From the NCBI GenBank assembly GCA_945860415.1, contig CAMAQA010000006.1, positions 959-64,958 of the forward strand: 64,000 bases of DNA. Direction: 5' to 3'. Positions 4,694-16,492 of the stretch are shown piece after piece. The position numbers and the translations under genes were made by a program. Origin of the DNA: Bacteriovorax stolpii. GTDB lineage: Bacteria > Bdellovibrionota > UBA1018. The notes under the pieces were generated by a model. That model saw only the letters and a program-made list of their open reading frames with translations. It searched no databases and was not told where the DNA came from. The first letter of the stretch is position 1, and each line of letters begins with the position of its first letter.

Positions 4694-6088
4694 TCACCCC
4701 TGGTCGTGCGCGAGCGTTCCTCGCGGCGACCTGAGGTACACGAACGGAGTTGCCTCCAGGAAGTGCCCGACCCGCGAAGTGTACACGTCGGCATAGCGCT
4801 CGAGCTGAAACGCCAGGTGACTCTTGTCGTTACCCGCGCGCATCAGGGGCCCCCAGATGGGGTGTCCCAGCTCGGTCGACTGGCGCGCCAATGGGGCAAT
4901 CTTTCGGTCGACCTCTTCGAGCTGGAGCTTCAGCTGCTGCATGCTTGCCTGAGTGGAGGCAGGGTCGCCAACCTGAGGCCCATAGCCCTTTTGGATGCGC
5001 TGCAGATTCAGCCGGAGCGCCGAGTACTGGGCCTCGAGCCGTTCCTTCTCCTTCATCAGTTCCGCCAGGAGCAGCTGGCTGGCGTGAAACGCCTCGGCAG
5101 CGACAATCTCCTCCTCGAGTTCGTTGACGATCAGGGCCGTGCGCCAGCGCAGGATGCTTTTGGTCACCTGGACATCACCAAAGACATGGTCGCCCACATA
5201 GAGAAGCTCGTCGCCGGAAAGCCCCAGGTGGCGTTCCACGGCGCGTGCGCTGCCGCCGAAATACACCGCGCCTTCCTTCAGGTCTCCAACGAAGGGTCGG
5301 AGCAGCCCCTCGCCGTTGACAACCTCAAAGAAGGAATTAGTGGTGGTGAAGAAGTCGGGCTTGCGGGCACTCACGATCACCACGTCAAAGAGCGATCGCC
5401 AGCCCATTCCTTCCGGAAGGAATCGGTCGAAGGCAAAGCTCATCATGTGCTGCGTGTAGCTCCACTCGGAGTTCGTGATCAGGAGAAGCTTCTTTCCGGA
5501 GTGCTTCTGATCGAGAAGCGCGAGCGGGACATCCGGATCAAGCCGGACGAAGTGCTCGGGATGGGCCATGATCTCAGCTTTCAGGCGGCCCTCGGCGTGG
5601 ACGGCATCGAGCGTCCGGCGTACGCGGTGGTAGAGGTCGACATAGCCCAGATGCTCGGGAATCTTTCCTTCGTCGAGAAGGTCGACGAGCTGCGCGTAGA
5701 AGCAGCCTTCTGAGAGCGAGAAAAAAGTATTCAGGAAGATCCATCGCGTTTCATTGAGGTCGACGATCGTGCGTTGATACGCTTCGCGAAGTCCGTCGTA
5801 CTCCAGCAGTTTGGTGCCATGCACGGCACGCTTCACGAAACCAAAGCGATTGGTCTTGAGGATGTTTCCCTTGTGGGCGTCGATGACCAGTCCTCGTCGC
5901 ACGAGGTTCGGATCGAACTGAAGGTGGTCGACCGGCCAGCCTTCCTGGACGAATCGTTCCTTGAGGTACTTGTAGGCGCGCTCCTCCCACTGGTGCACGT
6001 CGTAGTGGATGAGGGTGTAATCCATGTCGTAGCCGACGGCCTGGATGGAGCGCAGATTCAGGGTACGGTTGCAGTAGAGGTGCATCAC
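4694..6088 (-). CDS. HAD-superfamily 5'-nucleotidase (cN-II / PF05761-like)
   Basis: N-terminal NRTLNLRSIQAVGYDMDYTLIHY (DxDxT HAD motif in a cN-II context); 464 aa. Confidence 0.8.
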   Translation of the reverse strand: MMHLYCNRTLNLRSIQAVGYDMDYTLIHYDVHQWEERAYKYLKERFVQEGWPVDHLQFDPNLVRRGLVIDAHKGNILKTNRFGFVKRAVHGTKLLEYDGLREAYQRTIVDLNETRWIFLNTFFSLSEGCFYAQLVDLLDEGKIPEHLGYVDLYHRVRRTLDAVHAEGRLKAEIMAHPEHFVRLDPDVPLALLDQKHSGKKLLLITNSEWSYTQHMMSFAFDRFLPEGMGWRSLFDVVIVSARKPDFFTTTNSFFEVVNGEGLLRPFVGDLKEGAVYFGGSARAVERHLGLSGDELLYVGDHVFGDVQVTKSILRWRTALIVNELEEEIVAAEAFHASQLLLAELMKEKERLEAQYSALRLNLQRIQKGYGPQVGDPASTQASMQQLKLQLEEVDRKIAPLARQSTELGHPIWGPLMRAGNDKSHLAFQLERYADVYTSRVGHFLEATPFVYLRSPRGTLAHDQG

Positions 6089-6144
6089 TGCCGATTCTAG
6101 CGAGAATTTGCGGCCCGGACGAGGACCGTTTTGTCAGGATCGAG

Positions 6145-6705
6145 TCAGTTCTGGAGCTTGAAGACGAAGGATAGATTGAGCTTGCGGTCGGGCAGGGTCC
6201 CCGGTGGCACGTCGAGTCGTGTGGATTCTAGAAAGTTCAGAGCGGCATTGTCCAGGCGAGTGTGGCCGCTGGAGCGGGCGATGGCCACCTCGGCAGCCCT
6301 GCCATCGCCTCTCAGCATGAATTCCAGTGTCACAGTGCCTTCTTCTCCCGCACGACGTGAGAGTGGAGGGTACTGCGGCGCACCCTGTGGTGCCACGAGC
6401 GTTCCTGCGGGCAGGAGTTGTTCTCCGTGCTGACCCACGGTCGCCGCAGGTGGCGATGCGGCAGCTCCTGTTGACTGCGGTGTGCTCATCGAGGGGCGTG
6501 CCCTTTGCCGAGCTTTCCTGGGGGGCGAGTCTGTGCCGCTCGGACCGCTCCATCGCATCTCGACCACTGCCGACGGGTGGGCGGACCCGAGGCGAAACCG
6601 TTGTTCGATCCATCCCCCGCCCAGACCGAGTCCCAGCACCACCACACCTGCGATGAGCAGGTGAGTGATGGCGGATCGGACCAGCGCGAGGGTGAATGGT
6701 TTCAT
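6145..6705 (-). CDS. tonB: Energy transducer TonB
   Basis: N-terminal TM helix, Pro-rich spacer, and a C-terminal TonB_C-like segment (YPPLSRRAGEEGTVTLEFML...DGRAAEVAIARSSGHTRLDNAALNFLE). It lies immediately downstream of the TonB-dependent receptor. Confidence 0.8.
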   Translation of the reverse strand: MKPFTLALVRSAITHLLIAGVVVLGLGLGGGWIEQRFRLGSAHPSAVVEMRWSGPSGTDSPPRKARQRARPSMSTPQSTGAAASPPAATVGQHGEQLLPAGTLVAPQGAPQYPPLSRRAGEEGTVTLEFMLRGDGRAAEVAIARSSGHTRLDNAALNFLESTRLDVPPGTLPDRKLNLSFVFKLQN

Positions 6706-6711
6706 TCGAAC

Positions 6712-8601
6712 TCAGATTTCCTTCTGCAGGCCGACGTACAGCGATCGCCTTGCTGTGCCATATCCGGCGACCTCCTCGTACTCGCGATCCAGCACGTTGT
6801 CGAGCCTTCCGAAGGCCTTGTATCCTCCGCCAATCGTGTAGGAAGCATCAGCATTGAAGACGGTGTAGGAGGGCATGCGGATGGTACTAAAACCCGGGTC
6901 GGTGTCGTTTCTGATGCCGACATAACGGGCATTGATCCCGAAATCGAGGCTCTGGAGTAGCTTGCGGCGAGCGCTCAGGTGCAGGCTTTGTCTGGGACGC
7001 CTGATAAGATCCTCGTTCTTGTCATTGTTCCTCGCCATTAGAAATGTGTGTTGGATCGTCAGGCTGGAGCCCGAGGGTGATGAGTAGCTGAAACTGGTTT
7101 CAAGGCCCTTGTTTGTTGCGGAACCGATGTTCTTGTACTTGAACATATCCGTCGGATCGCCAAGGATGAGATTCGAGAACTGGGATTGGAACCATGTGGT
7201 CTGGAGAGTGAGACCTGGGCCCAAATCCTGTTGCATCGACAGATCATAGCTGAAGCTGGTTTCTGATGAGAGTGAAGGATTGCCGTAAATTGGGGCGTAA
7301 ATCTGATCGAGGCTGGGGATCTTGAATCCTCTTCCCAGGCTTCCCTTGAGCGTTGTCCCAGTACTCTCGAATCGATGCCCCGGGCCCAGTCGGTAAGTCA
7401 GTTGGTTCCCAAAACCGTGAAACCGATCTCCGCGCAGTGCCACGCTGGCGAAGCTGCTTCCTGATTTCCACCTATTCTCGGAAAAAATTCCTGTTACGGA
7501 TTGGCTTACTGACGGCATCGCGCTGATGTAGGCGCCGTACTGGTCGTAAATCGAACCTCGGTCAATTTGGCTGTCGATTCCGATAGTCAGGGTGTTTGAG
7601 TCATTCAGGATGAATTGGTTCAGCTGCTCGAGACGGAATCGAGCGCCATGATAGCGCCCGGTAGCCGAATCGGCATGGATAAGGTCCGGTGCGTTATCAG
7701 TCTTTCGAAAGGTCTTGAAAAAAGAGAGCGCGATCGTCGGTTCCCAGTTGGAGTTTCCTTGGTAGCTCACTTCGGCCCGAGCAGTTCCTTGTGTCTCAAA
7801 CTGAACGTGATTGGGATCATCTCCGCCGCTTCCCCCTGAGAAAGGAAGTTCAGAGCGCGCCTGATATGCCCTTGCCGTGGTCCGAAGGTGCCACGCGTCT
7901 TTCAATTTGGTCTCGGTGGATACAGTTCCTGAAAAGTTTCGGTACCCGCTATTGATGGAGTTGCCGTACCTCGAGGAAGCGGCTGGAAATCCTTCACTCT
8001 CATCGTATCCGAAGTTGAGATTGACTGTACTTAATCCCACCTCTCTCGCTGCGAGTATTGATCCACGTCGAGTATCGAAGGCACCATATTCTCCGAAAAT
8101 CGACGCAGAGTTGCTTTGCTGGCGGCGGGTGATGATGTTGATCACGCCTCCGATGGCATTCGCACCGTGCACTCCGCTCTGTGATCCACTAAGGACTTCA
8201 ATTCGGTCCACCTGTCGAGCGTTGAGCCTGCCAAAGTCATAGCCTCTAGCCGGGCTGGATGGATCGTTCATCACCACTCCGTCGACCATGACGAGTGTCT
8301 GCTGGTATCCTGATCCCCGGATATAAACTTCGGTGAGTCTACCCGGCCCTCCGGAATTCATCACGCTCACTCCAGGGGCCGAACGTAGGAGCTCGAAGAT
8401 CGGTTTGCCGGACTGGCGGTCCGACTCGGTCGGTTCGATTACTGCGATGGACTGAGCAACCTCATCCTGGGGAGTCGTAATGCGGCTTGCCGTAATCACC
8501 ACCGGCTCGAGATTTTCGGTCTCTTCACCGTATGCCTGGGAAAGGGTCGCACAGACCGTGACCGCGCTGATGATGCAGAGCCTGTAGAGAGATCGTTGCA
8601 C
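6712..8601 (-). CDS. btuB: TonB-dependent outer-membrane receptor, inferred cobalamin transporter because a B12 riboswitch sits upstream
   Basis: Signal peptide, plug domain (VVITASRITTPQDEVAQSIAVIE... TEVYIRGSG), 629 aa barrel. GTG start. A cobalamin riboswitch lies in the 5' leader. Confidence 0.8.
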   Translation of the reverse strand: MQRSLYRLCIISAVTVCATLSQAYGEETENLEPVVITASRITTPQDEVAQSIAVIEPTESDRQSGKPIFELLRSAPGVSVMNSGGPGRLTEVYIRGSGYQQTLVMVDGVVMNDPSSPARGYDFGRLNARQVDRIEVLSGSQSGVHGANAIGGVINIITRRQQSNSASIFGEYGAFDTRRGSILAAREVGLSTVNLNFGYDESEGFPAASSRYGNSINSGYRNFSGTVSTETKLKDAWHLRTTARAYQARSELPFSGGSGGDDPNHVQFETQGTARAEVSYQGNSNWEPTIALSFFKTFRKTDNAPDLIHADSATGRYHGARFRLEQLNQFILNDSNTLTIGIDSQIDRGSIYDQYGAYISAMPSVSQSVTGIFSENRWKSGSSFASVALRGDRFHGFGNQLTYRLGPGHRFESTGTTLKGSLGRGFKIPSLDQIYAPIYGNPSLSSETSFSYDLSMQQDLGPGLTLQTTWFQSQFSNLILGDPTDMFKYKNIGSATNKGLETSFSYSSPSGSSLTIQHTFLMARNNDKNEDLIRRPRQSLHLSARRKLLQSLDFGINARYVGIRNDTDPGFSTIRMPSYTVFNADASYTIGGGYKAFGRLDNVLDREYEEVAGYGTARRSLYVGLQKEI

Positions 8602-8609
8602 GCCGTTGC

Positions 8610-8805
8610 CTTTCGTCGTTGCCAGTCACGACGAAAGGAGGTCGAGCGACCTAAAGACGAGGCTCGGTTCCCGGATCCAGAATCCCTTTTCCACGAGGAT
8701 TCGACCCCTGACGTCATTCTGGCAGTGGACCCTGGAGGGCGATCGGACTTTCACCGTTGCGGGCCAGCGCCGGAATTTCACCGGACTTCAGCCGTTCCAG
8801 GACAT
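8610..8805 (-). promoter_or_regulatory. Cobalamin (B12) riboswitch with an RBS-sequestering expression platform, in the btuB leader
   Basis: The minus strand reads ...CCGGTGAAATTCCGGCGCTGGCCCGCAACGGTGAAAGTCCG (8783-8743), matching the conserved GGUGAAAUUCC...GCUGCCCCCGCAACGGUAA core. The B12 box GTCCACTGCC is at 8730-8721. A 10-bp hairpin (CCTTTCGTCG / CGACGAAAGG, forward 8609-8638) can occlude the GAAAGG Shine-Dalgarno 9 nt before the GTG start. Confidence 0.8.
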
Positions 8806-8842: not shown

Positions 8843-9322
8843 TCAGCCGAGCAGTGCCTCGACCTGTTTCTCGAGTTTTTCAGGAGCGGTCTGCGGGGCA
8901 AAGCGCTCGACGACATTTCCCTGACGGTCGACGAGGAACTTCGTGAAGTTCCACTTGATGGCTTCCGTCCCGAAAAGCCCTTTTTCCTCGCTTTTGAGGT
9001 GCTGGAAAAGCGGATGGGCTCCGGGACCGTTGACCTCGATTTTCGACAACATCGGAAAGGTCACGTCATATTTGAGTTTGCAGAACTGCTGGATTTCCTT
9101 CTCGTCGCCGGGCTCTTGGGCGCCGAACTGATTGCACGGAAAGCCGAGAACGACGAGTCCACGATCCTTGTACTTGCGATGCAGTTTTTCCAGTCCGTCG
9201 TACTGCGGCGTGAATCCGCAGGCGCTCGCAACATTGACGATCAGCAACACCTTGCCTTGGTGCTGCTTCAACGATGTCAGATTTCCGTCGATGTCCTTCA
9301 GTTCAAAATCGTAGATCTGCAT
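8843..9322 (-). CDS. gpx: Glutathione peroxidase (BtuE-like)
   Basis: LLIVNVASACGFTPQY, LGFPCNQFGAQEPG and WNFTKFLV are GPx family motifs. Confidence 0.9.
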   Translation of the reverse strand: MQIYDFELKDIDGNLTSLKQHQGKVLLIVNVASACGFTPQYDGLEKLHRKYKDRGLVVLGFPCNQFGAQEPGDEKEIQQFCKLKYDVTFPMLSKIEVNGPGAHPLFQHLKSEEKGLFGTEAIKWNFTKFLVDRQGNVVERFAPQTAPEKLEKQVEALLG

Positions 9323-9342: not shown

Positions 9343-9399
9343 TCGTGAAGATTGACAAGGTTTCGCGCACACCGAACACTGATCTTTGGAGGAGTGCTC
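9343..9399 (+). promoter_or_regulatory. Divergent promoter region between gpx and the lipoprotein gene, with a TTGACA -35-like hexamer and a GGAGG RBS
   Basis: ATTGACAAGG at about 9343-9352. GGAGG at 9388-9392, 7 nt before the GTG at 9400. Confidence 0.25.
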
Positions 9400-10605
9400 G
9401 TGTCGAGATCGATCCTGCGTCACACCCTGATTCGTCCCGTCACGGCGGCGATCCTGCTCTCGAGCCTGCTCGCGTGCGGTGGTGGAACAGGAAACGTGGC
9501 TCTTCGCTTCATTCGCGTCACGTCGGAAGTTCCGATCATCGAAGACCCTCTTCCGGATCCGAGCGATACGCCGAGCGATACGCCAACTCCCGAACCGAGC
9601 GTCACTCCGACGCCCCTGCCCACACCGACCTTCAGCCCGCTGGAGCTGAGTTCGACCTTCTATTACGACTCGTTCAAGATTCCGGTTCGTGCCGTCGAGC
9701 TCGTCGGTTCGGCGGTTTCGTCCGAGGTCTACTATTGCGATGCCGATACGAACGATTCCTGCCTCGTCGAGTGGAACCAGGAAGTGGGGATGGACAGCCT
9801 CACTGGCCGAGCAATCGAAGTGGACGCTGGAACCTACCAGGAGATGGTAGTTCACACGTGCTTTGACGAGGGTTCCTACACCCTGACTGTCCAGGGTTCT
9901 GTAGATATCGGTCTAGCAACTTATGTCACGCAGAGCGACGGTGTGCCCGTGATCGATTCCTTTCCGCAGGAATCGAGAATCGAGGTGTCCTCGTGCCAGT
10001 ACACCATTCCGCTTCCGACACCCATCACCGTGGAGAAGGGCTCATCCACTTCGCTGAACGTCTTTTATGATCTCCGAAACATGGTCTGGATCGGCCTTCG
10101 TTCCTCCGCGCTTGCGTCGCAGACTCCTGCGCCCTGGAGCACTTCTGGATGTACTGGAAAGCTGAATGGCCAATATGATGTGGGCGCGGATGCCTATGTT
10201 TGTGCTTCCTTTCCGCTCCTTCATCCCAAGCTGGGCGATGCGCCGGTGCTCGAGCGATACCGAATCAATAATCGTGCGATCGTCGGCGTCTACTTCGAGG
10301 CCTCGGACTATTACGTCGGAACCAAGACACCGATCGGAGGCTACCTTCGCCGGTATTATGGTGCTGAAACCACGGCCGGAGCAGATTTCGGGTTTGATGT
10401 TCCCTTGAAGACGATCACGAAAAACATCGACGGAACCTATTCCATCGACAGCTACGGAGCCAGCGCCACTGGGGCGCCGTACTTCAGCTCACTCGACTTT
10501 CCAGGAGACCTCACGACAACGGACAAGCCGGTCGGCAGCGGCACCTTCATCGGAGTGCTCTCGGGTCCGACCAGCAATGCCTTTCTGGCCGAACGGCTCG
10601 AGTAG
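9400..10605 (+). CDS. Lipoprotein with a Pro/Thr-rich linker (hypothetical)
   Basis: GGAGG lies 7 nt before the GTG at 9400. Lipobox LLACGG. Linker PDPSDTPSDTPTPEPSVTPTPLPTPT. No domain recognised. Confidence 0.55.
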   Translation: MSRSILRHTLIRPVTAAILLSSLLACGGGTGNVALRFIRVTSEVPIIEDPLPDPSDTPSDTPTPEPSVTPTPLPTPTFSPLELSSTFYYDSFKIPVRAVELVGSAVSSEVYYCDADTNDSCLVEWNQEVGMDSLTGRAIEVDAGTYQEMVVHTCFDEGSYTLTVQGSVDIGLATYVTQSDGVPVIDSFPQESRIEVSSCQYTIPLPTPITVEKGSSTSLNVFYDLRNMVWIGLRSSALASQTPAPWSTSGCTGKLNGQYDVGADAYVCASFPLLHPKLGDAPVLERYRINNRAIVGVYFEASDYYVGTKTPIGGYLRRYYGAETTAGADFGFDVPLKTITKNIDGTYSIDSYGASATGAPYFSSLDFPGDLTTTDKPVGSGTFIGVLSGPTSNAFLAERLE

Positions 10606-10617
10606 TCGGCGCAGGTC

Positions 10618-13600
10618 CTACATGTTTCTGCGATACTGGCCGCCCACTTCAAAGAGGGCCTGGGTGATCTGGCCGAGCGAACAGACCTTCGTGGCCTGCA
10701 TGAGCTGGTCGAAGATGTTTCGCCCCTGGGCCGCCGCCGAGCGAAGCTCGATGAGCGATTGGCCACACTCCTCCGAGCGGAAGCGATGAAGCGCCTTCAG
10801 CATGGAGATCTGGTACTCCTTTTCGTCGTTGGTTGCTCGGATGACCTCGCGTGGAATCACCGTGGGTGAACCCTCCGACGAGAGGAATGTGTTCACGCCG
10901 ATGATCGGGTATTCGCCCGTGTGCTTGAGCATCTCGTAATGGAGCGACTCTTCCTGGATCTTGCCGCGCTGATACATCGTTTCCATCGCGCCCAGCACGC
11001 CACCGCGTTCGGTGATCCGGTCGAACTCCGCCATGACGGCCTGCTCGACGAGATCTGTGAGCTCCTCGATGATGAAGGATCCCTGGTTCGGGTTCTGGTT
11101 CTTGGCGAGGCCCAGCTCGTGGTTGATGATCAGCTGAATCGCCATCGCACGGCGCACAGAAGCCTCTGTCGGGGTCGTGATGGCCTCGTCATAGGCATTC
11201 GTGTGCAGCGAGTTGCAGTTGTCGTAGATGGCGTACAGGGCCTGCAGCGTCGTGCGGATGTCGTTGAAGTCGATCTCCTGGGCGTGGAGCGAACGTCCGG
11301 AGGTCTGGATATGGTACTTGAGCATCTGCGAGCGCGAGTCGGCACCATACTTGTGCTTGAGTGCCTTGGCCCAGATTCGTCGCGCCACGCGTCCGATGAC
11401 CGAGTACTCCGGATCGACGCCGTTCGAGAAGAAGAACGATAGGTTCGGCGCGAACTGGTTGATGTCCATGCCGCGCGAGACGTAGTACTCGACGAAGGTA
11501 AAGCCGTTGGCGAGGGTGAAGGCCAGCTGCGTGATCGGGTTCGCGCCGGCTTCGGCGATATGGTAGCCCGAGATCGACACCGAGTAGAAATTCTTGACCT
11601 GGCTTCGGATGAAGTAGTCCTGGATGTCGCCCATCATGCGCAGGGCAAACTCCGTCGAGAAGATGCAGGTGTTCTGGGCCTGGTCTTCCTTGAGGATGTC
11701 GGCCTGGACGGTGCCGCGCACCTGGCTCAGGGTGTGCGCCCGGATCTTTTCGTAGACATCCTTCGGCAAAACCTCGTCACCCGTCACTCCCAGCAGCATC
11801 AGTCCGAGGCCGTCATTTCCGGGGGGCAGCTCTCCCTGATACCGTGGGCGTGGCAGGCCCTTGGCCTGGAATAGCCCATCGATGCGCGCGTTCACTTCGT
11901 CCGTGAGACCGTTCTGGCGAATGTAGCGCTCGCACTGCTGGTCAATCGCGGCGTTCATGAAGAAGCCCACGAGCATCGGCGCGGGCCCGTTGATCGTCAT
12001 CGAGACCGAAGTCTTCGGGTCGCAGAGGTTGAAGCCCGAGTAGAGCTTCTTGGCGTCATCCAGGCAGCAGATGGATACGCCGGCGTTGCCGATCTTGCCG
12101 TAGATGTCCGGCCGTCGATCCGGGTCAAAGCCGTAAAGCGTGACCGAGTCAAAAGCGGTGGAGAGGCGCTTGGCTGGCATCGCGCGCGAGACGTAGTGGA
12201 AGCGTCGGTTCGTGCGCTCCGGGCCGCCTTCGCCAGCGAACATGCGCGTCGGGTCTTCTCCCTCGCGCTTGAACGGAAACACGCCGGCCGTGTACGGAAA
12301 TTCTCCCGGAACGTTCTCCTGAAGGCTCCAGCGCAGGATGTCTCCCCAGGCGCGGTAGCGGGGGAGGGACACCTTGGGAATCATCAGGTGCGACAGGGAT
12401 TTCGTGTGCGTCTCGACGCGAACATCCTTGCCGCGGACCTGGTAGATGAACACCGGATCGCGATAGGCCTTCACTTTTTCGGGCCATTTCGCGAGAAGGT
12501 TTCTGCATTCAGCATCGAGCTTCAGCTCGAGCTCGGAAGCCTGCTTCGCAAGGGCGTCGCGGGCTGGCTTCAGTTCAGCGCTCTCCGGAAGGACCGCCAG
12601 TGATTCACGAAGCGACTGAAGCTGGTGAGCGAGTTCCGCCTGTTTTGACGTCCACTCGTCGTAACGGCGGATGGTTTCGGTGATCTCCGAGAGGTAGCGC
12701 GTGCGCTCCGGCGGTATGATGTGGATCTTGCGCGACTCCTCGCGCGTGGCTGCCACGGATGAGGTGAACGGACTTCCGGTCTTGTTGACGATCGTGTCAA
12801 TGAGCGTCCGGTAGAGGCGGTTCATTCCAGGATCATTGAACTGCGAGGCGATGCTGCCGACCACCGGCAGGTCCTCATCGCTGCCTTCAAAGAGCTTGTG
12901 GTTGCGGCGGTACTGCTTGCGCACGTCGCGAAGCGCGTCCTGGCCTCCTCGCTTGTCGAACTTGTTGAGCGCGATCACGTCGGCAAAATCGAGCATGTCG
13001 ATTTTTTCGAGCTGGGTCGCGGCGCCATATTCCGGAGTCATCACGTAAAGCGACACATCCGAATGCTCAGTGATTTCGGTATCGCTCTGGCCGATGCCCG
13101 ACGTCTCGAGAACGATGAGATCGAAGCCTGCGGCCTGCGCGATGGTGAGCGCCTCCTTGACGTGCTTCGAGAGCGCAAGGTTCGCCTGGCGCGTGGCGAG
13201 CGAGCGCATGTACACGCCCTGGTGGTGGACGGAGTTCATGCGGATGCGATCGCCGAGGAGCGCGCCGCCGGTCTTTCGCTTCGAGGGGTCGACCGAGATG
13301 ACGGCAATGCTCTTGTTTGGAAAGTCCGTGATGAAACGACGGACGAATTCATCGATCAGCGAGGATTTTCCTGCGCCGCCAGTTCCGGTGATTCCGAGTA
13401 CGGGTGCCTTTTTTGTGCGCTTCTCCGCCGTCGCGTGAATGGCTCCGATCAGGCCCGTGTTCTGTTCTGGGGCATTTTCTGCGGCCGAGATGGCATTCCC
13501 GATGATGCGTGATTCGCGCGACTTCAGGCGCGATAGAAACTGATCCAGCTCCTTGCCGGACTGGGGCAGGCCCGAGCCCGTGGCGAAGTCGCTATTTTCG

Positions 13601-14028
13601 ATCAGGTGATTGATCATCCCCTGGAGGCCCATCGCGCGGCCATCATCGGGAGAGTAGATGCGGGTGACTCCCGCAGCATGAAGCTCCTCGATCTCCGAGG
13701 GCAGAATCACGCCGCCACCCCCGCCGAAGATTCGGATATGGCCGCAGCCGCGCTCTTTCAGCAGCTCGACCATGTACTTGAAGTACTCGACATGGCCGCC
13801 CTGATAGGAGGTCATGGCGATGGCCTGGGCGTCTTCCTGGATGGCGCAGTCCACTACCTCGGCAACCGAGCGGTTATGGCCCAGATGGATGACCTCGGCG
13901 CCGGTCGACTGCAGGATTCGCCGCATGATATTGATCGCGGCGTCGTGCCCGTCAAAGAGCGAGGCAGCCGTCACGATGCGGATCTTGTTTTTTGCCGGGT
14001 AAGCTGAGACTTCAGGGTTCTGAGCCAT
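10618..14028 (-). CDS. icmF: Fused isobutyryl-CoA mutase IcmF (B12-binding domain, MeaB-like GTPase, mutase catalytic domain)
   Basis: N-terminal B12-binding DGHDAAIN (DxHxxG) motif, P-loop [13 protein letters not shown]-terminal methylmalonyl/isobutyryl-CoA mutase TIM-barrel region; 1136 aa. Confidence 0.85.
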
Positions 14029-14266
14029 GACGACCGACGTACCAAAAAACCAGCAAAACAGCGAGCATAGCGAAATCGCGGCCCTTCACGAAGTGGCCTG
14101 TCGAAAGGGCGAGCGCTTTTACCTGGATCCCGCCACCCAGTATTGGGTGACCACACGCTGTGCCCACCTGGAGCGCGGGTATTGCTGTGGAAATGGCTGC
14201 CGTCACTGTCCCTGGAACCACGAGGCTGTCCGCAATCCCTCGGCAGGCCGGATCGGTCGCAAGTGA
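14027..14266 (+). CDS. Small Cys-rich protein ([10 protein letters not shown] motif, DUF5522-like)
   Basis: 79 aa with ...[36 protein letters not shown]. Its start overlaps the icmF start divergently. Its stop is 7 nt before the next start. Confidence 0.5.
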
Positions 14267-14273
14267 GTGGCGG

Positions 14274-15083
14274 ATGAGCACCAGACCCATCAGCGACATG
14301 CTGGGGCGGTCGCTGACTGTTCCCATTCAGCCCGCCCGGATCGTTTCTCTGTGTCCCTCTCAGACCGAAACGCTTTTTGACCTTGGCCTGGGGGCTCGGG
14401 TAGTGGGGTCCACCCGATATTGCATCCATCCTGCGCCTGCCGTGACCGCCACGGTCCGGGTAGGGGGTACCAAGAAGGTGGATCTGGAATTGGTCCGCGG
14501 GCTTCGTCCGGATCTGATCATTGCGGAAAAGGAAGAGAACCCTCGCGAGATGGTGGACGCTCTCTCGGAAATCAGCCCGGTCTACGTCACCGATGTCGTG
14601 GATCAGGGCAGTGCGTTTGAGATGATCCGTAAAGTGGGAAGCCTCACCGGCACTTCGGAGTGTGCGACTCGGCTGGTGTCGCAGATCGAAACCGACTGGA
14701 ACGAGATGCCGCAATTCTCGAGAAAGTTGCGCACTGGTTACCTGATCTGGCGCAAGCCGTGGATGGCGGCTGGAGCCACGACCTACATCGATGATTTGCT
14801 TCGGACGGTAGGACTCGACAATGTTTTTTCTTCCGGTAAGCCCTCGGGCAAGCGTTACCCGGACTTCTCGATCGAAGAGCTCATCGAGCGCCAGCCGGAG
14901 CTCGTGCTGCTGTCCTCCGAACCGTACCCTTTTCAGGCGAGGCATGTGGAGGAGCTTCAGGCCGCTCTTCCCGGGGCGCAGATCCTGCTCACCGACGGTG
15001 AGCCCTGGTCCTGGTACGGAAGCCGAATGCGGCTTTTTCCCAAGCTGATTCGCGACTTGCATGCACAAATCAAAACTTCCTGA
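14274..15083 (+). CDS. BtuF-like cobalamin/siderophore-type substrate-binding protein (helical-backbone PBP fold) with no recognisable signal peptide
   Basis: ARIVSLCPSQTETLFDLGLGARVVGSTRYC...VGGTKKVDLELVRGLRPDLIIAEKE... matches the BtuF/FhuD family pattern. The N-terminus MSTRPISDMLGRSLTVPIQ has no hydrophobic h-region. Confidence 0.65.
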   Translation: MSTRPISDMLGRSLTVPIQPARIVSLCPSQTETLFDLGLGARVVGSTRYCIHPAPAVTATVRVGGTKKVDLELVRGLRPDLIIAEKEENPREMVDALSEISPVYVTDVVDQGSAFEMIRKVGSLTGTSECATRLVSQIETDWNEMPQFSRKLRTGYLIWRKPWMAAGATTYIDDLLRTVGLDNVFSSGKPSGKRYPDFSIEELIERQPELVLLSSEPYPFQARHVEELQAALPGAQILLTDGEPWSWYGSRMRLFPKLIRDLHAQIKTS

Positions 15084-15139: not shown

Positions 15140-16492
15140 ATGAGCTTCATCGTGCGACATCTGTTCATAGGGATTCTGATTTCGGGCTTTATCTGGACGC
15201 CTTTCGTCGCAGCGGCCACCCCGTTCTGCGCAAAGTACTTCGAGGCGCTTTATGACGAGCCCGTGCCGGCGTTGGCGCTGTATCGACGCTCGGGACTGCG
15301 CGGGTTGGATCGATCAGCTATCCTGGCCGTGGACGCCCACCTTCGGGCGATTCGACTGTCGCAGTACGAAGACAAGTTGCTGCTGAAGAGTGATGTTCAG
15401 GCGCTGCTTGAGATCCAGTGCCTCAGGACCAAGTCCAACTGCAATGAGCTCGTGAAGTGGTGGTCGAGGAATTCCTCACAATACGTCGACAGCCCCCAGT
15501 TTCTCGAGATTTTTGCGAACCCAAAGACGACTCTTCGTGACTTCTCGGAGCTGGCCTCGAGCCAGTTCTACCTCCAGGTGGGAAAGACCAAGGGGAGTGC
15601 GTGGAGGGAGAAGTTCGCCGTTTTCTTCAGCCCTCGAGCGATTGTTGCAACGGTTTCCGCCATTGGCGTGTCCATCGGGGTAAAGGTGCTTGCGACGCTT
15701 TATAATGCCGCCACCCTCGGCACCATGATGAAGCTCTGGAATGCGTACACGGATGCCGCAGTGGCGCCGATCGAGGCGCACCTGAAGCAGCAGGGTACGA
15801 AAGACCTCGCTGGTGTCTCCAACCACATTCAAGAGTGGCTGATTCATCGCGCTGGTGCCCAGCAGCAGCTTGCTGATCTCAAGTCCAAGCTGAACGACAC
15901 TGAGCGCCGGCTGAGCCAGGGAGTGCTTTCAAGCGAAGAGGCCAAGAGGCTCTGGGAGGAGTTTCAGGGCTACTTTTATGGCAAGTTCATGGCTTTCAAT
16001 CAGAGCCTGCCGGGCAACATGCGTGAGGGCCGGGCATTCATCTATTCGACGGAGTTTTCGGAGCCCATGTCCATCGCCAACTTCATCTCAGGGCGACATG
16101 AAAGCTATCGTGAAGGCGTGAGGCTGGTGCGTTCGCTCGAGGAAAAAGTGCTGTCGGGTTCCGCCACGGCCGTCGATCTCGAAGATTTGGAAGGCCAGAA
16201 GCGCTATCTCGAAATCCAGAAGAAGCAGATTGCTGCAGGACTAGCCGTGTTCATGATCCGAAAATACATGTACCGCGATGACGTGTATCGCACCGTTTTC
16301 GATGCCAACAAGCAGCTCGTGATCAAGCTTGACGAACTCCAGCACGATCTGGTCGAGGCCTTTGGCATCCAGTACTTCATGTCCGAGTTCATCGAGCAGC
16401 TCAAGGATGTCTTTCGCCAATATGAGCTGATCTTCCAGGCTGCCGACATCCAGGCGCATCTGGAGCTGCCGGGCGCCAAGCCAGACCGATGA
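15140..16492 (+). CDS. Hypothetical secreted protein (about 450 aa)
   Basis: Signal peptide MSFIVRHLFIGILISGFIWTPFVAAA. No motif recognised. Confidence 0.5.
   Translation: MSFIVRHLFIGILISGFIWTPFVAAATPFCAKYFEALYDEPVPALALYRRSGLRGLDRSAILAVDAHLRAIRLSQYEDKLLLKSDVQALLEIQCLRTKSNCNELVKWWSRNSSQYVDSPQFLEIFANPKTTLRDFSELASSQFYLQVGKTKGSAWREKFAVFFSPRAIVATVSAIGVSIGVKVLATLYNAATLGTMMKLWNAYTDAAVAPIEAHLKQQGTKDLAGVSNHIQEWLIHRAGAQQQLADLKSKLNDTERRLSQGVLSSEEAKRLWEEFQGYFYGKFMAFNQSLPGNMREGRAFIYSTEFSEPMSIANFISGRHESYREGVRLVRSLEEKVLSGSATAVDLEDLEGQKRYLEIQKKQIAAGLAVFMIRKYMYRDDVYRTVFDANKQLVIKLDELQHDLVEAFGIQYFMSEFIEQLKDVFRQYELIFQAADIQAHLELPGAKPDR

Follow-up and report, generated by a model that had tools for sequence, protein, structure and literature searches.

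INTRODUCTION

Neither the route by which vitamin B12 travels in bacteria from the inner-membrane importer to the enzymes nor the reduction or stripping of the cofactor before adenosylation is settled, and no dedicated cytosolic carrier or reductant is known to act upstream of the bacterial system of adenosyltransferase, G protein, and mutase. A model of cofactor loading in this system has been reviewed (PMC11672702), and precedents for cysteine-cobalt chemistry in B12 handling are available from BtuM (PMC6072759) as well as from MMACHC and MMADHC (PMC12501144). Here, a gene pair is described which might act at this point of the pathway. It was found in a stretch of 64,000 nucleotides from Bacteriovorax stolpii (Bdellovibrionota; GenBank assembly GCA_945860415.1, contig CAMAQA010000006.1, positions 959 to 64,958), hereafter called the window, where it lies head-to-head with icmF, the gene of a fused isobutyryl-CoA mutase. 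The first gene encodes a Cys-rich mini-protein of the DUF5522/C1orf53 type, the second a protein with the solute-binding fold of BtuF which carries no signal peptide.

Independent clues from gene order and gene fusion suggest a link of this module to B12 handling. In sister lineages, DUF5522 and the BtuF-like protein form one unit, either by fusion or by translational coupling, and this unit is tightly coupled to icmF in the genome, within a neighborhood of B12 uptake. Moreover, the invariant residues of the BtuF-like protein map, according to a profile alignment, to the cleft loops which contact B12 in BtuF. The two genes of the forward strand are tentatively read as an intracellular ligand-handling module dedicated to IcmF in this lineage, with a corrinoid cofactor as the most likely ligand; judged from the sequences, this reading is plausible and still somewhat short of probable. 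Its B12 component is based on the genes of IcmF, methylmalonyl-CoA mutase (MCM), and PduO and the riboswitch found near family members elsewhere, on fusions of DUF5522 to adenosyltransferases, and on the riboswitch-btuB unit of the window.

ARRANGEMENT OF THE icmF LOCUS

The gene icmF (positions 10618..14028, reverse strand) encodes a protein of 1136 amino acids which reaches 1770.8 bits against the NCBIfam equivalog NF045497 (cutoff 1500). Its Pfam domains occur in the expected order, i.e., B12-binding (residues 17-121), MeaB (182-381), and MM_CoA_mutase (765-1129), and the FDGHDAA His-loop as well as the GTGGAGKS P-loop are present in the sequence. The NCBIfam match and the domain order thus confirm the B12-dependent fused mutase with a MeaB-like G-domain proposed by an earlier interpretation of this DNA, here termed the sequence-only reading. 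On the forward strand, the DUF5522 mini-protein of 79 amino acids (14027..14266) matches Pfam PF17653 with E 1.3e-22 and 80 bits (cutoff 25). It is followed by the signal-less BtuF-like protein of 269 amino acids (14274..15083), a class-III solute-binding-fold protein assigned by Pfam and NCBIfam, the ATG of which at 14274 lies 7 nucleotides past the TGA of the DUF5522 gene.

The start codons of icmF and of the DUF5522 gene overlap by two nucleotides on opposite strands, both ATG codons being held in the palindromic CATG at 14026..14029. Coordinates, overlapping starts, and the 7-nucleotide gap had been given correctly to the base in the sequence-only reading. Position 14028 is the earliest possible start of icmF and 14027 that of DUF5522; the only later candidates, GTG codons at V19 of IcmF and V23 of DUF5522, would both truncate conserved domain residues. 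The overlap is kept in four metagenomic relatives (loci L001-L004), which include a metagenome-assembled genome of the Bdellovibrionales, and is located at positions 7739/7738 in L002 and L003 and at 7967/7966 in L004. In addition, the DNA from 13979 to 14066 is near-invariant among the window, L002, and L004, synonymous sites included. As there is zero intergenic DNA at the CATG, the promoter and the 5' region of each gene must lie within its partner gene, and the two mRNAs are possibly leaderless or overlapping in antisense. Such a conserved head-to-head overlap of start codons without intergenic promoter space represents an unusual gene arrangement. A scan for the sigma-70 consensus around the shared start revealed no site. 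The segment 13979-14066 also contains an 8-nucleotide inverted repeat, GTTTTTTG (13987-13994) and CAAAAAAC (14043-14050).

The DUF5522 and BtuF-like genes overlap by four nucleotides in L003 and are truly fused in L004. In the proteins P0017 and P0018 from sister MAGs of the Bdellovibrionales, DUF5522 is fused directly N-terminal to the BtuF-like domain. The fusions in P0017 and P0018 together with the overlap in L003 substantiate the coupling of the Cys-rich and the BtuF-like protein assumed in the sequence-only reading.

Two trivial explanations of the gene pair were considered and rejected. A spurious small open reading frame is ruled out by the Pfam match, the fusions, and thousands of homologues, and a single frameshifted gene comprising both proteins is ruled out in the window, where the reading frames differ and the stop and start codons are intact.

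THE BtuF-LIKE PROTEIN

Family and Fold

The BtuF-like protein belongs to the Pfam family Peripla_BP_2 (PF01497; E 1e-23, 84.4 bits, cutoff 27.5) and matches the NCBIfam family TroA_like, 'helical backbone metal receptor' (NF038402), with 147.5 bits (cutoff 30). A word-indexed search for the family yielded 7176 matches, the best 120 of which comprise 248-301 amino acids except for two fusions, and at least 600 matches each were obtained when one genome per species and the JGI metagenomes were scanned. The members occur mostly in Bacteroidota, but also in Gammaproteobacteria (Nevskiales, Lysobacterales), Chloroflexota (Caldilineales), and Bdellovibrionales. An alignment of 118 sequences across these phyla features a mean column identity of 47% and 30 invariant columns. 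The AlphaFold2 model, with a predicted local distance difference test score (pLDDT) of 96.6, shows the class-III two-lobed fold with a backbone helix at residues 128-143. Its top Foldseek matches are the BtuF structures 5ysc (E 2.6e-18), 1n2z (4e-18), and 1n4a. Next come a staphylococcal binding protein which is uncharacterised and three heme binders, BhuT, RhuT, and ShuT; TM is 0.7-0.8 and identity about 20%. BtuF and the heme binders represent the subgroup of the fold which binds tetrapyrroles. Likewise, hhalign assigned a probability of 98.7% to the comparison with E. coli BtuF. According to Pfam and NCBIfam scans, neither this protein nor DUF5522 is homologous to MMACHC/CblC, MMADHC/CblD, BtuM, PduO, or MeaB. 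The literature searched contained nothing on a 'BtuF-like' protein without signal peptide and no characterised member of the BtuF-like or the DUF5522 family.

Residues of the Cleft

The residues of BtuF reported to contact B12 (Borths et al., 2002), namely P31, A32, Y50, W66, W85, F162, F168, and W196, with W66 and W85 stacking on B12, were mapped onto the family by an hhalign profile alignment to E. coli BtuF. P31 and A32 correspond to P28 and S29, Y50 to Y/F49, and W196 to Y195, while F162 is replaced by I158 and F168 by M164. Beside these positions, P166 of BtuF corresponds to P162 and S51 to a cysteine, C50, in all 118 sequences, Y53 to H52 in 115 of 118, and G87/G88 to E87/E88. In the cleft, C50, T66, K67, E87, E88, Y156, W159, M164, Y195, E216, W247, and Y248 are 100% conserved. 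The positions of Glu72 and Glu202, by which BtuF docks, are acidic in only 74% and approximately 50% of the members, respectively. An invariant cleft together with variable docking positions points to selection on the cleft and not on a permease interface.

Cytoplasmic Location

The in-frame reading frame of the BtuF-like protein is closed upstream by a stop at 14148-14150, and none of the alternative starts (GTG 14160, GTG 14187, ATG 14193) gives rise to a signal peptide. The upstream extension features no basic n-region, carries a Glu where it is most hydrophobic, and overlaps the region encoding the conserved Cys motif of DUF5522. On the same signal-peptide measure, E. coli BtuF and a 295-residue BtuF of locus L005 score clearly as positive controls. 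In each of the 117 unfused homologues listed, the first beta-strand is preceded by 5-50 residues, and a signal-peptide-like N-terminus is absent throughout. These features support a predicted cytoplasmic location across the whole family.

A search by tblastn with BtuC and BtuD of L005 found no btuCD in the 64-kb window. Among the approximately 166 loci sampled for the gene context of the family, no gene of a FecCD/BtuC permease or of an ATPase adjoins the BtuF-like gene, and the lone BtuFCD set (in L005) includes its own signal-bearing binding protein, the one of 295 residues. The sequence-only reading had described the protein as signal-less and an importer role as unlikely; both statements were borne out by the alternative starts and by the missing transporter genes.

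THE DUF5522 MINI-PROTEIN

The predicted structure of DUF5522 comprises a helix (residues 10-27), a beta-hairpin (31-42), a second helix (44-50), and a Cys loop (50-63), which is unstructured in the AlphaFold2 model (pLDDT 74), as would be expected if the site needs a metal. An alignment of 118 sequences shows no variation at G51, C53, C54, G57, C58, H60, and C61; the Cys residues of the CCGxGCRHCP loop make up a CC-X3-C-X2-C motif with an additional His. Animal members carry the name 'C1orf53-like', and the copy of the window is 51% identical over 69 amino acids to such a protein of a horseshoe crab. A full search with the hidden Markov model resulted in 4423 representative clusters, mostly stand-alone proteins of 50-90 amino acids. 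There was neither a sequence match in the PDB nor a significant Foldseek match. Five weak matches in a plasmid collection lie in uninformative contexts.

The fusions of the domain were surveyed among a dozen longer top-match proteins, ten of which were scanned by Pfam, with others judged by reading the sequence. In three proteins (Bigelowiella natans and algal transcripts of the MMETSP), DUF5522 is fused to an adenosyltransferase of the PduO/MMAB type, the Cob_adeno_trans domain being complete in P0131 (E 7.7e-50) and partial in P0130 (Bigelowiella natans) and P0206. The DUF5522 of the window is about 50% identical to these copies and shares their long C1orf53-type form: an N-terminal ALHxxAC helix is common to the window, the horseshoe crab, and the adenosyltransferase-fused proteins and absent from the short forms of Bacteroidota. 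Several further fusions concern Dph6-like PP-loop ATPases (Diphthami_syn_2; P0266, P0268, P0277), with one cluster of 122 members. Other arrangements include one GNAT fusion, tandem repeats of DUF5522, and a partner domain which, from its sequence, looks like a Cys-rich domain of the CWC type. Two loci which are unrelated to each other also have a stand-alone gene of a Dph6-like protein in the vicinity of the BtuF-like gene (L087, positions 5489-6166; L014, approximately 3.4 kb downstream), so that these ATPases are a third recurrent partner, and Cys_Met_Meta_PP genes are located 0.5-3 kb from stand-alone DUF5522 genes in L181 and L182.

The core spacing C54-X3-C58-X2-C61 matches the cluster motif CX3CX2C of radical SAM proteins. 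Still, DUF5522 is not assigned to this superfamily, as the domain comprises about 48 amino acids without a barrel and the Radical_SAM match on P0131 reaches 20.3 bits compared to a cutoff of 29.5.

No paper on DUF5522 or PF17653 was found in the literature searched, and C1orf53 is contained there only in expression lists, without a link to cobalamin. A survey of diatoms from 2011 includes a gene family of prokaryotic origin with C1orf53 as best Swiss-Prot match and 'ABC' as transporter class (PMC3237598). This combination suggests the same fusion of DUF5522 and a binding protein as in P0017 and P0018.

GENOMIC CONTEXT

B12 Surroundings in the Window and Its Relatives

An AdoCbl-II riboswitch aptamer (8729..8803, reverse strand; Rfam RF01689, 39.9 bits, gathering threshold 36.5, E 4.9e-6) precedes the gene of a BtuB-like TonB-dependent receptor with plug and barrel domains (6712..8601, reverse strand). 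The best NCBIfam matches of the receptor are TonB-B12 (TIGR01779, 296 bits) and BtuB (233 bits), both under the equivalog cutoffs, and a TonB_C gene follows downstream, as seen in L001. This riboswitch-btuB-tonB unit is located 5.4 kb from the module in the window and had been absent from the sequence-only reading. The riboswitch context shows that the neighborhood is a B12 island. A PduO adenosyltransferase was not found in the 64-kb window by tblastn.

In the relatives L001-L004, the gene order is receptor, glutathione peroxidase, lipoprotein-like protein, icmF, DUF5522, BtuF-like, 450-residue protein, and recN, with identity dropping to 85% for IcmF and 61% for the BtuF-like protein. In the window, the glutathione peroxidase gene (8843..9322, reverse strand; Pfam GSHPx 1.6e-46) lies immediately upstream of the riboswitch, and its membership in the module is uncertain. 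The btuCED operon of E. coli also carries a glutathione peroxidase, BtuE. In L004, where no riboswitch scores above the threshold, the peroxidase and receptor genes overlap by four nucleotides. The module is flanked in the four related loci by the lipoprotein-like protein, which has 401-417 amino acids and a Pro/Thr-rich linker (9352..10605, forward strand, in the window). On the other side, a conserved protein of 450 amino acids with a hydrophobic N-terminus (15140..16492, forward strand) starts 57 nucleotides downstream of the BtuF-like gene and is kept in L001-L004; it is possibly, with some uncertainty, the third gene of the unit. For both flanking proteins (417 and 450 amino acids), no match was obtained in Pfam, NCBIfam, or the PDB.

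Context of the BtuF-Like Family in Other Genomes

Outside the lineage of the window, genes of the family adjoin icmF repeatedly. In L005, which is probably from a gammaproteobacterium, the BtuF-like gene and icmF diverge across a gap of 33 nucleotides; a PduO adenosyltransferase is located at 0.7 kb and a receptor with BtuFCD at 3.5-6 kb. In L036 and L071 (Lysobacterales/Pseudomonadota), both genes share a strand, and the BtuF-like gene precedes icmF by about 650 bp. Among Bacteroidota, L171 has icmF 4.4 kb upstream in the same orientation, MCM is located at a distance of 2.3 kb in L137, and a PduO adenosyltransferase at 1.1 kb in L073. In L090 (Caldilineales), a cobalamin riboswitch leads an operon which diverges from the BtuF-like gene, and MCM as well as methylmalonyl-CoA epimerase lie 5-6 kb away. 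Missing co-occurrence with B12-dependent enzymes in other genomes, which the sequence-only reading had named as evidence against itself, was not observed: icmF adjoins the BtuF-like gene in L005, L036, and L071, and B12-related elements lie nearby in L090, L137, L171, and L073. Acyl-CoA mutases are the sole enzyme class which recurs across phyla beside BtuF-like genes. Seven to eight independent co-localizations with mutase or adenosyltransferase genes within 10 kb, three to four of them immediately adjacent, compare to about two expected by a rough estimate assuming approximately five mutase-system genes per 4.5 Mb.

The riboswitch of L090 (7728-7867) heads, within 6503-7867 on the reverse strand, the gene of another Peripla_BP_2 protein of 262 amino acids without signal peptide, followed by a membrane protein of 137 amino acids. 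With this protein, BtuF-like proteins lacking a signal peptide are of two kinds, the second being linked to B12 directly by its regulation.

PROPOSED FUNCTION AND ALTERNATIVE EXPLANATIONS

According to the mechanism proposed here, B12 imported via the nearby riboswitch-controlled BtuB route would be caught in the cytoplasm by the cleft of the BtuF-like protein, where Cys50, beside the equivalent of Tyr50 in BtuF, could serve as thiolate ligand to cobalt, assisted by His52. DUF5522 with its Cys motif and His might bind a metal or an Fe-S center, or act as a dithiol, and would supply electrons or thiol chemistry, either for removing the upper ligand or for maintaining cobalamin in a reduced state. 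After this processing, the cofactor would be passed to a PduO-type adenosyltransferase and on to IcmF, whose own G domain would gate the loading. A more far-reaching version regards DUF5522/C1orf53 as a new B12-processing component for PduO/MMAB, which would either reduce cob(II)alamin to cob(I)alamin or remove the upper ligand, and the BtuF-like protein as the missing cytosolic corrinoid escort acting via Cys50-cobalt ligation, both together being a bacterial counterpart of human CblC/CblD; we consider this version, which would predict a role in B12 metabolism for human C1orf53, unlikely.

The first and main alternative assumes that the BtuF-like protein binds a ligand other than a corrinoid, i.e., a tetrapyrrole such as heme, a metal ion via Cys, His, and Glu, or a metabolite related to sulfur or acyl-CoA, in a housekeeping job. 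The adjacency to icmF in some lineages would then reflect shared metabolism (catabolism of branched-chain compounds or acyl-CoA) or local synteny instead of cofactor delivery, and DUF5522 would be a general metal or redox adaptor. Such a function is possible and, on balance, rather doubtful. Several properties of the protein itself speak for it and weigh against a corrinoid ligand. With 56.5 bits compared to a cutoff of 234, the BtuF equivalog NF002894 is missed by far, so the protein is BtuF-like in fold and not an orthologue of BtuF; the NCBIfam name it does obtain merely designates a metal receptor. In Foldseek, the fold is matched by heme-binding proteins and by BtuF to about the same degree. 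W66 of BtuF is replaced by the invariant T66 and W85 by E/N85, and the cleft is unusually charged (EKEEN, K67, R160, R194), with invariant Cys, His, and Glu residues as are typical of metal sites. The residue mapping thus indicates a pocket at the same place as that of BtuF with a different chemistry, two Trp being lost and a Cys/His pair as well as charges gained. The comparison of corrinoid contacts on the predicted fold, as proposed in the sequence-only reading, was answered in two ways: P28, S29, Y/F49, and Y195 are kept or similar, whereas T66, E/N85, I158, and M164 are changed.

The gene contexts contribute further points against B12 as ligand. Most of the Bacteroidota loci (approximately 150) have no B12 gene within 10 kb and feature housekeeping neighbors, and outside Bacteroidota no B12 gene is present in L087, L092, L098, L114, and L138. 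A PALP+CBS gene adjoins the BtuF-like gene in 51 of the 166 loci, mostly immediately upstream on the same strand, which makes this pyridoxal phosphate-dependent enzyme the dominant neighbor; its product falls slightly short of the cutoffs for cystathionine beta-synthase (477 vs. 510) and cysteate synthase (CapA). HscB and a carboxyltransferase are among the recurrent housekeeping neighbors, and in L087 an acyl-CoA dehydrogenase gene lies 8-10 nucleotides upstream of the BtuF-like gene, which also has a Dph6-like ATPase as neighbor. A cobalamin riboswitch was found near members of the family in only one of 38 loci (L090), where it precedes the divergent neighbor gene. By the rough estimate given above, the enrichment of mutase and adenosyltransferase genes near the family is significant and not overwhelming. 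DUF5522 was found near a BtuF-like gene by motif search and tblastn across the approximately 166 loci only in the lineage of the window, so that the triad of DUF5522, BtuF-like protein, and IcmF, whose co-occurrence across genomes the sequence-only reading proposed as a check, is confined to this lineage. Examples of the PALP+CBS gene are located at 5677-7047 in L011 and 7610-8980 in L171; the B12 hypothesis leaves this link unexplained. Several other neighbors in Bacteroidota, i.e., EPSP synthase, DAHP synthase, DHQ synthase, aldolases, patatin, a KpsF-like protein, and AccD, were set aside as partners, being conserved housekeeping synteny.

DUF5522 is likewise found mostly in contexts unrelated to B12. 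Stand-alone genes, e.g., those of L094-L097 and L178-L181, neighbor trmB or tlyA or lie between DHO_dh and fmt. They overlap the 3' end of trmB in Chitinophagaceae and of tlyA/FtsJ in Blastocatellia by about 10 nucleotides, and in Marinilabiliales-like genomes they directly precede fmt, abutting it in L094 and at a distance of about 30 nucleotides in L095-L097. These arrangements suggest translational coupling to partners outside the B12 pathway. Given the mostly non-B12 neighbors and the fusions to Dph6-like and GNAT domains, DUF5522 is probably a general-purpose domain and not specific for B12. The most fitting description is that of a portable module for metal or redox functions which was recruited to B12-related partners in the lineage of the window and in algae.

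Nevertheless, a non-corrinoid ligand leaves unexplained why adenosyltransferase genes are located at 0.7-1.1 kb in L005 and L073, why a riboswitch-led gene neighbors the family in L090, and why DUF5522 is fused to adenosyltransferases. The same holds true for the adjacency to IcmF, which recurs in three forms (divergent genes with overlapping starts, divergent genes 33 nucleotides apart, and tandem genes), and for acyl-CoA mutases alone recurring as an enzyme class across phyla.

A second alternative regards the BtuF-like protein as an enzyme which acts on a tetrapyrrole or corrinoid by ligand removal, (de)metalation, or remodelling, with DUF5522 as its redox subunit. The class-III binding-protein fold and the class II chelatases CbiK, CbiX, and HemH belong to one superfamily (Pfam clan CL0043). 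The concentration of invariant columns in the cleft, including C50, H52, E87, E88, E216, H224, and E227, would suit an enzyme, as would a fused Cys4His domain with radical-SAM-like spacing and a weak Radical_SAM match on P0131. However, neither Pfam nor NCBIfam yielded a match to a chelatase family, the top structural matches are all binding proteins, and no candidate substrate is defined. We consider this explanation quite improbable. It overlaps with the proposed B12 handling if the substrate is B12.

An ordinary periplasmic BtuF with a mis-called start or non-classical export, serving an importer encoded elsewhere, is hardly credible: despite the membership in Peripla_BP_2, the acidic residue at the Glu72 position in 74% of the members, and the BtuB-type receptor nearby, the upstream stop leaves no start with a canonical signal peptide, the listed unfused homologues lack such N-termini where genuine BtuF proteins score clearly, Cys-rich domains are fused to the N-terminus in sister lineages, permease and ATPase genes do not adjoin, and the score for the BtuF equivalog is far under the cutoff.

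The cytosolic carrier or chaperone for B12 suggested by the sequence-only reading is consequently retained in part. The fusions, the IcmF and PduO contexts, and the riboswitch argue for it; the lack of orthology to BtuF, the absence of Trp66 and Trp85, and the contexts of Bacteroidota and of stand-alone DUF5522 argue against it. While the fold is known, its cytoplasmic, Cys/His-bearing, and IcmF-linked version is a new variant, and the link of DUF5522/C1orf53 to adenosyltransferases appears to be unreported in the literature searched. Two large uncharacterised families, comprising 7176 BtuF-like matches and 4423 DUF5522 clusters, are tied to the B12 pathway by four independent kinds of evidence, namely mutual fusion, algal fusion of DUF5522 to adenosyltransferase, repeated adjacency to IcmF, and the riboswitch neighborhood. 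As human C1orf53 belongs to the DUF5522 family, a role in B12 metabolism, if confirmed, would have a bearing on inherited methylmalonic acidurias without identified gene. Even if B12 should prove to be wrong, a strictly cytoplasmic member of a 'periplasmic' binding-protein fold with enzyme-like conservation offers a clear target for characterization.

COMPARISON WITH KNOWN SYSTEMS

BtuF (E. coli 1N2Z/1N4A, V. cholerae 5YSC) is the best match of the BtuF-like protein with regard to structure and profile. In both, one long backbone helix joins two Rossmann-like lobes, as is characteristic of the class-III fold, and the cleft positions P28/S29, Y/F49, Y195, and P162 are kept or similar in the family. 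In contrast to BtuF, the BtuF-like protein, at about 20% identity, has neither a signal peptide nor a BtuCD partner, contains T66 and E/N85 in place of W66 and W85, and has gained the invariant C50, H52, K67, E87, and E88. Moreover, its family is far better conserved across phyla than usual transport binding proteins.

The heme binders ShuT, PhuT, HmuT, BhuT, and RhuT (255-270 amino acids) are similar in size and match the fold as well as BtuF does (TM 0.72-0.77). Their tetrapyrrole is bound between the two lobes, where the protein contributes an axial ligand. Periplasmic heme-binding proteins use Tyr for this purpose. Whereas these proteins are exported and dock on ABC permeases, the BtuF-like protein is predicted to be cytoplasmic, offers Cys and His as candidate ligands, and has no heme genes nearby.

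In BtuM of Thiobacillus denitrificans and in human MMACHC-MMADHC, a cysteine thiolate on cobalt enables decyanation or hand-over (PMC6072759, PMC12501144). The likeness of the module is a functional analogy only and consists of an invariant Cys/His in a B12-type cleft and a thiol-rich partner beside a B12 enzyme. There is no relationship in sequence or fold, and cobalt-sulfur ligation in the BtuF-like protein is a hypothesis.

The module resembles the PduO/MMAB-MeaB/MMAA-mutase system by its location at icmF, the adenosyltransferase genes near the members of L005 and L073, and the algal DUF5522 fusions. Neither protein is homologous to adenosyltransferase or MeaB, and both may act upstream of the adenosyltransferase, as we infer. 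Human C1orf53 belongs to the same Pfam family as the mini-protein (PF17653), and the likeness, measured on arthropod 'C1orf53-like' proteins, extends to the N-terminal helix and the CCGxGCRHCP loop.

A further parallel is provided by HgcA and HgcB. The cobalt of HgcA is ligated by Cys, HgcB is a small Cys-rich ferredoxin, and their chemistry is a methyl transfer to mercury. The pairing of a corrinoid protein with a small Cys-rich partner has been described (PMC7305189). Although the folds are unrelated and the chemistry is another one, both systems would share the same principle, in that a corrinoid-binding protein providing a Cys ligand is assisted by a small redox protein rich in Cys.

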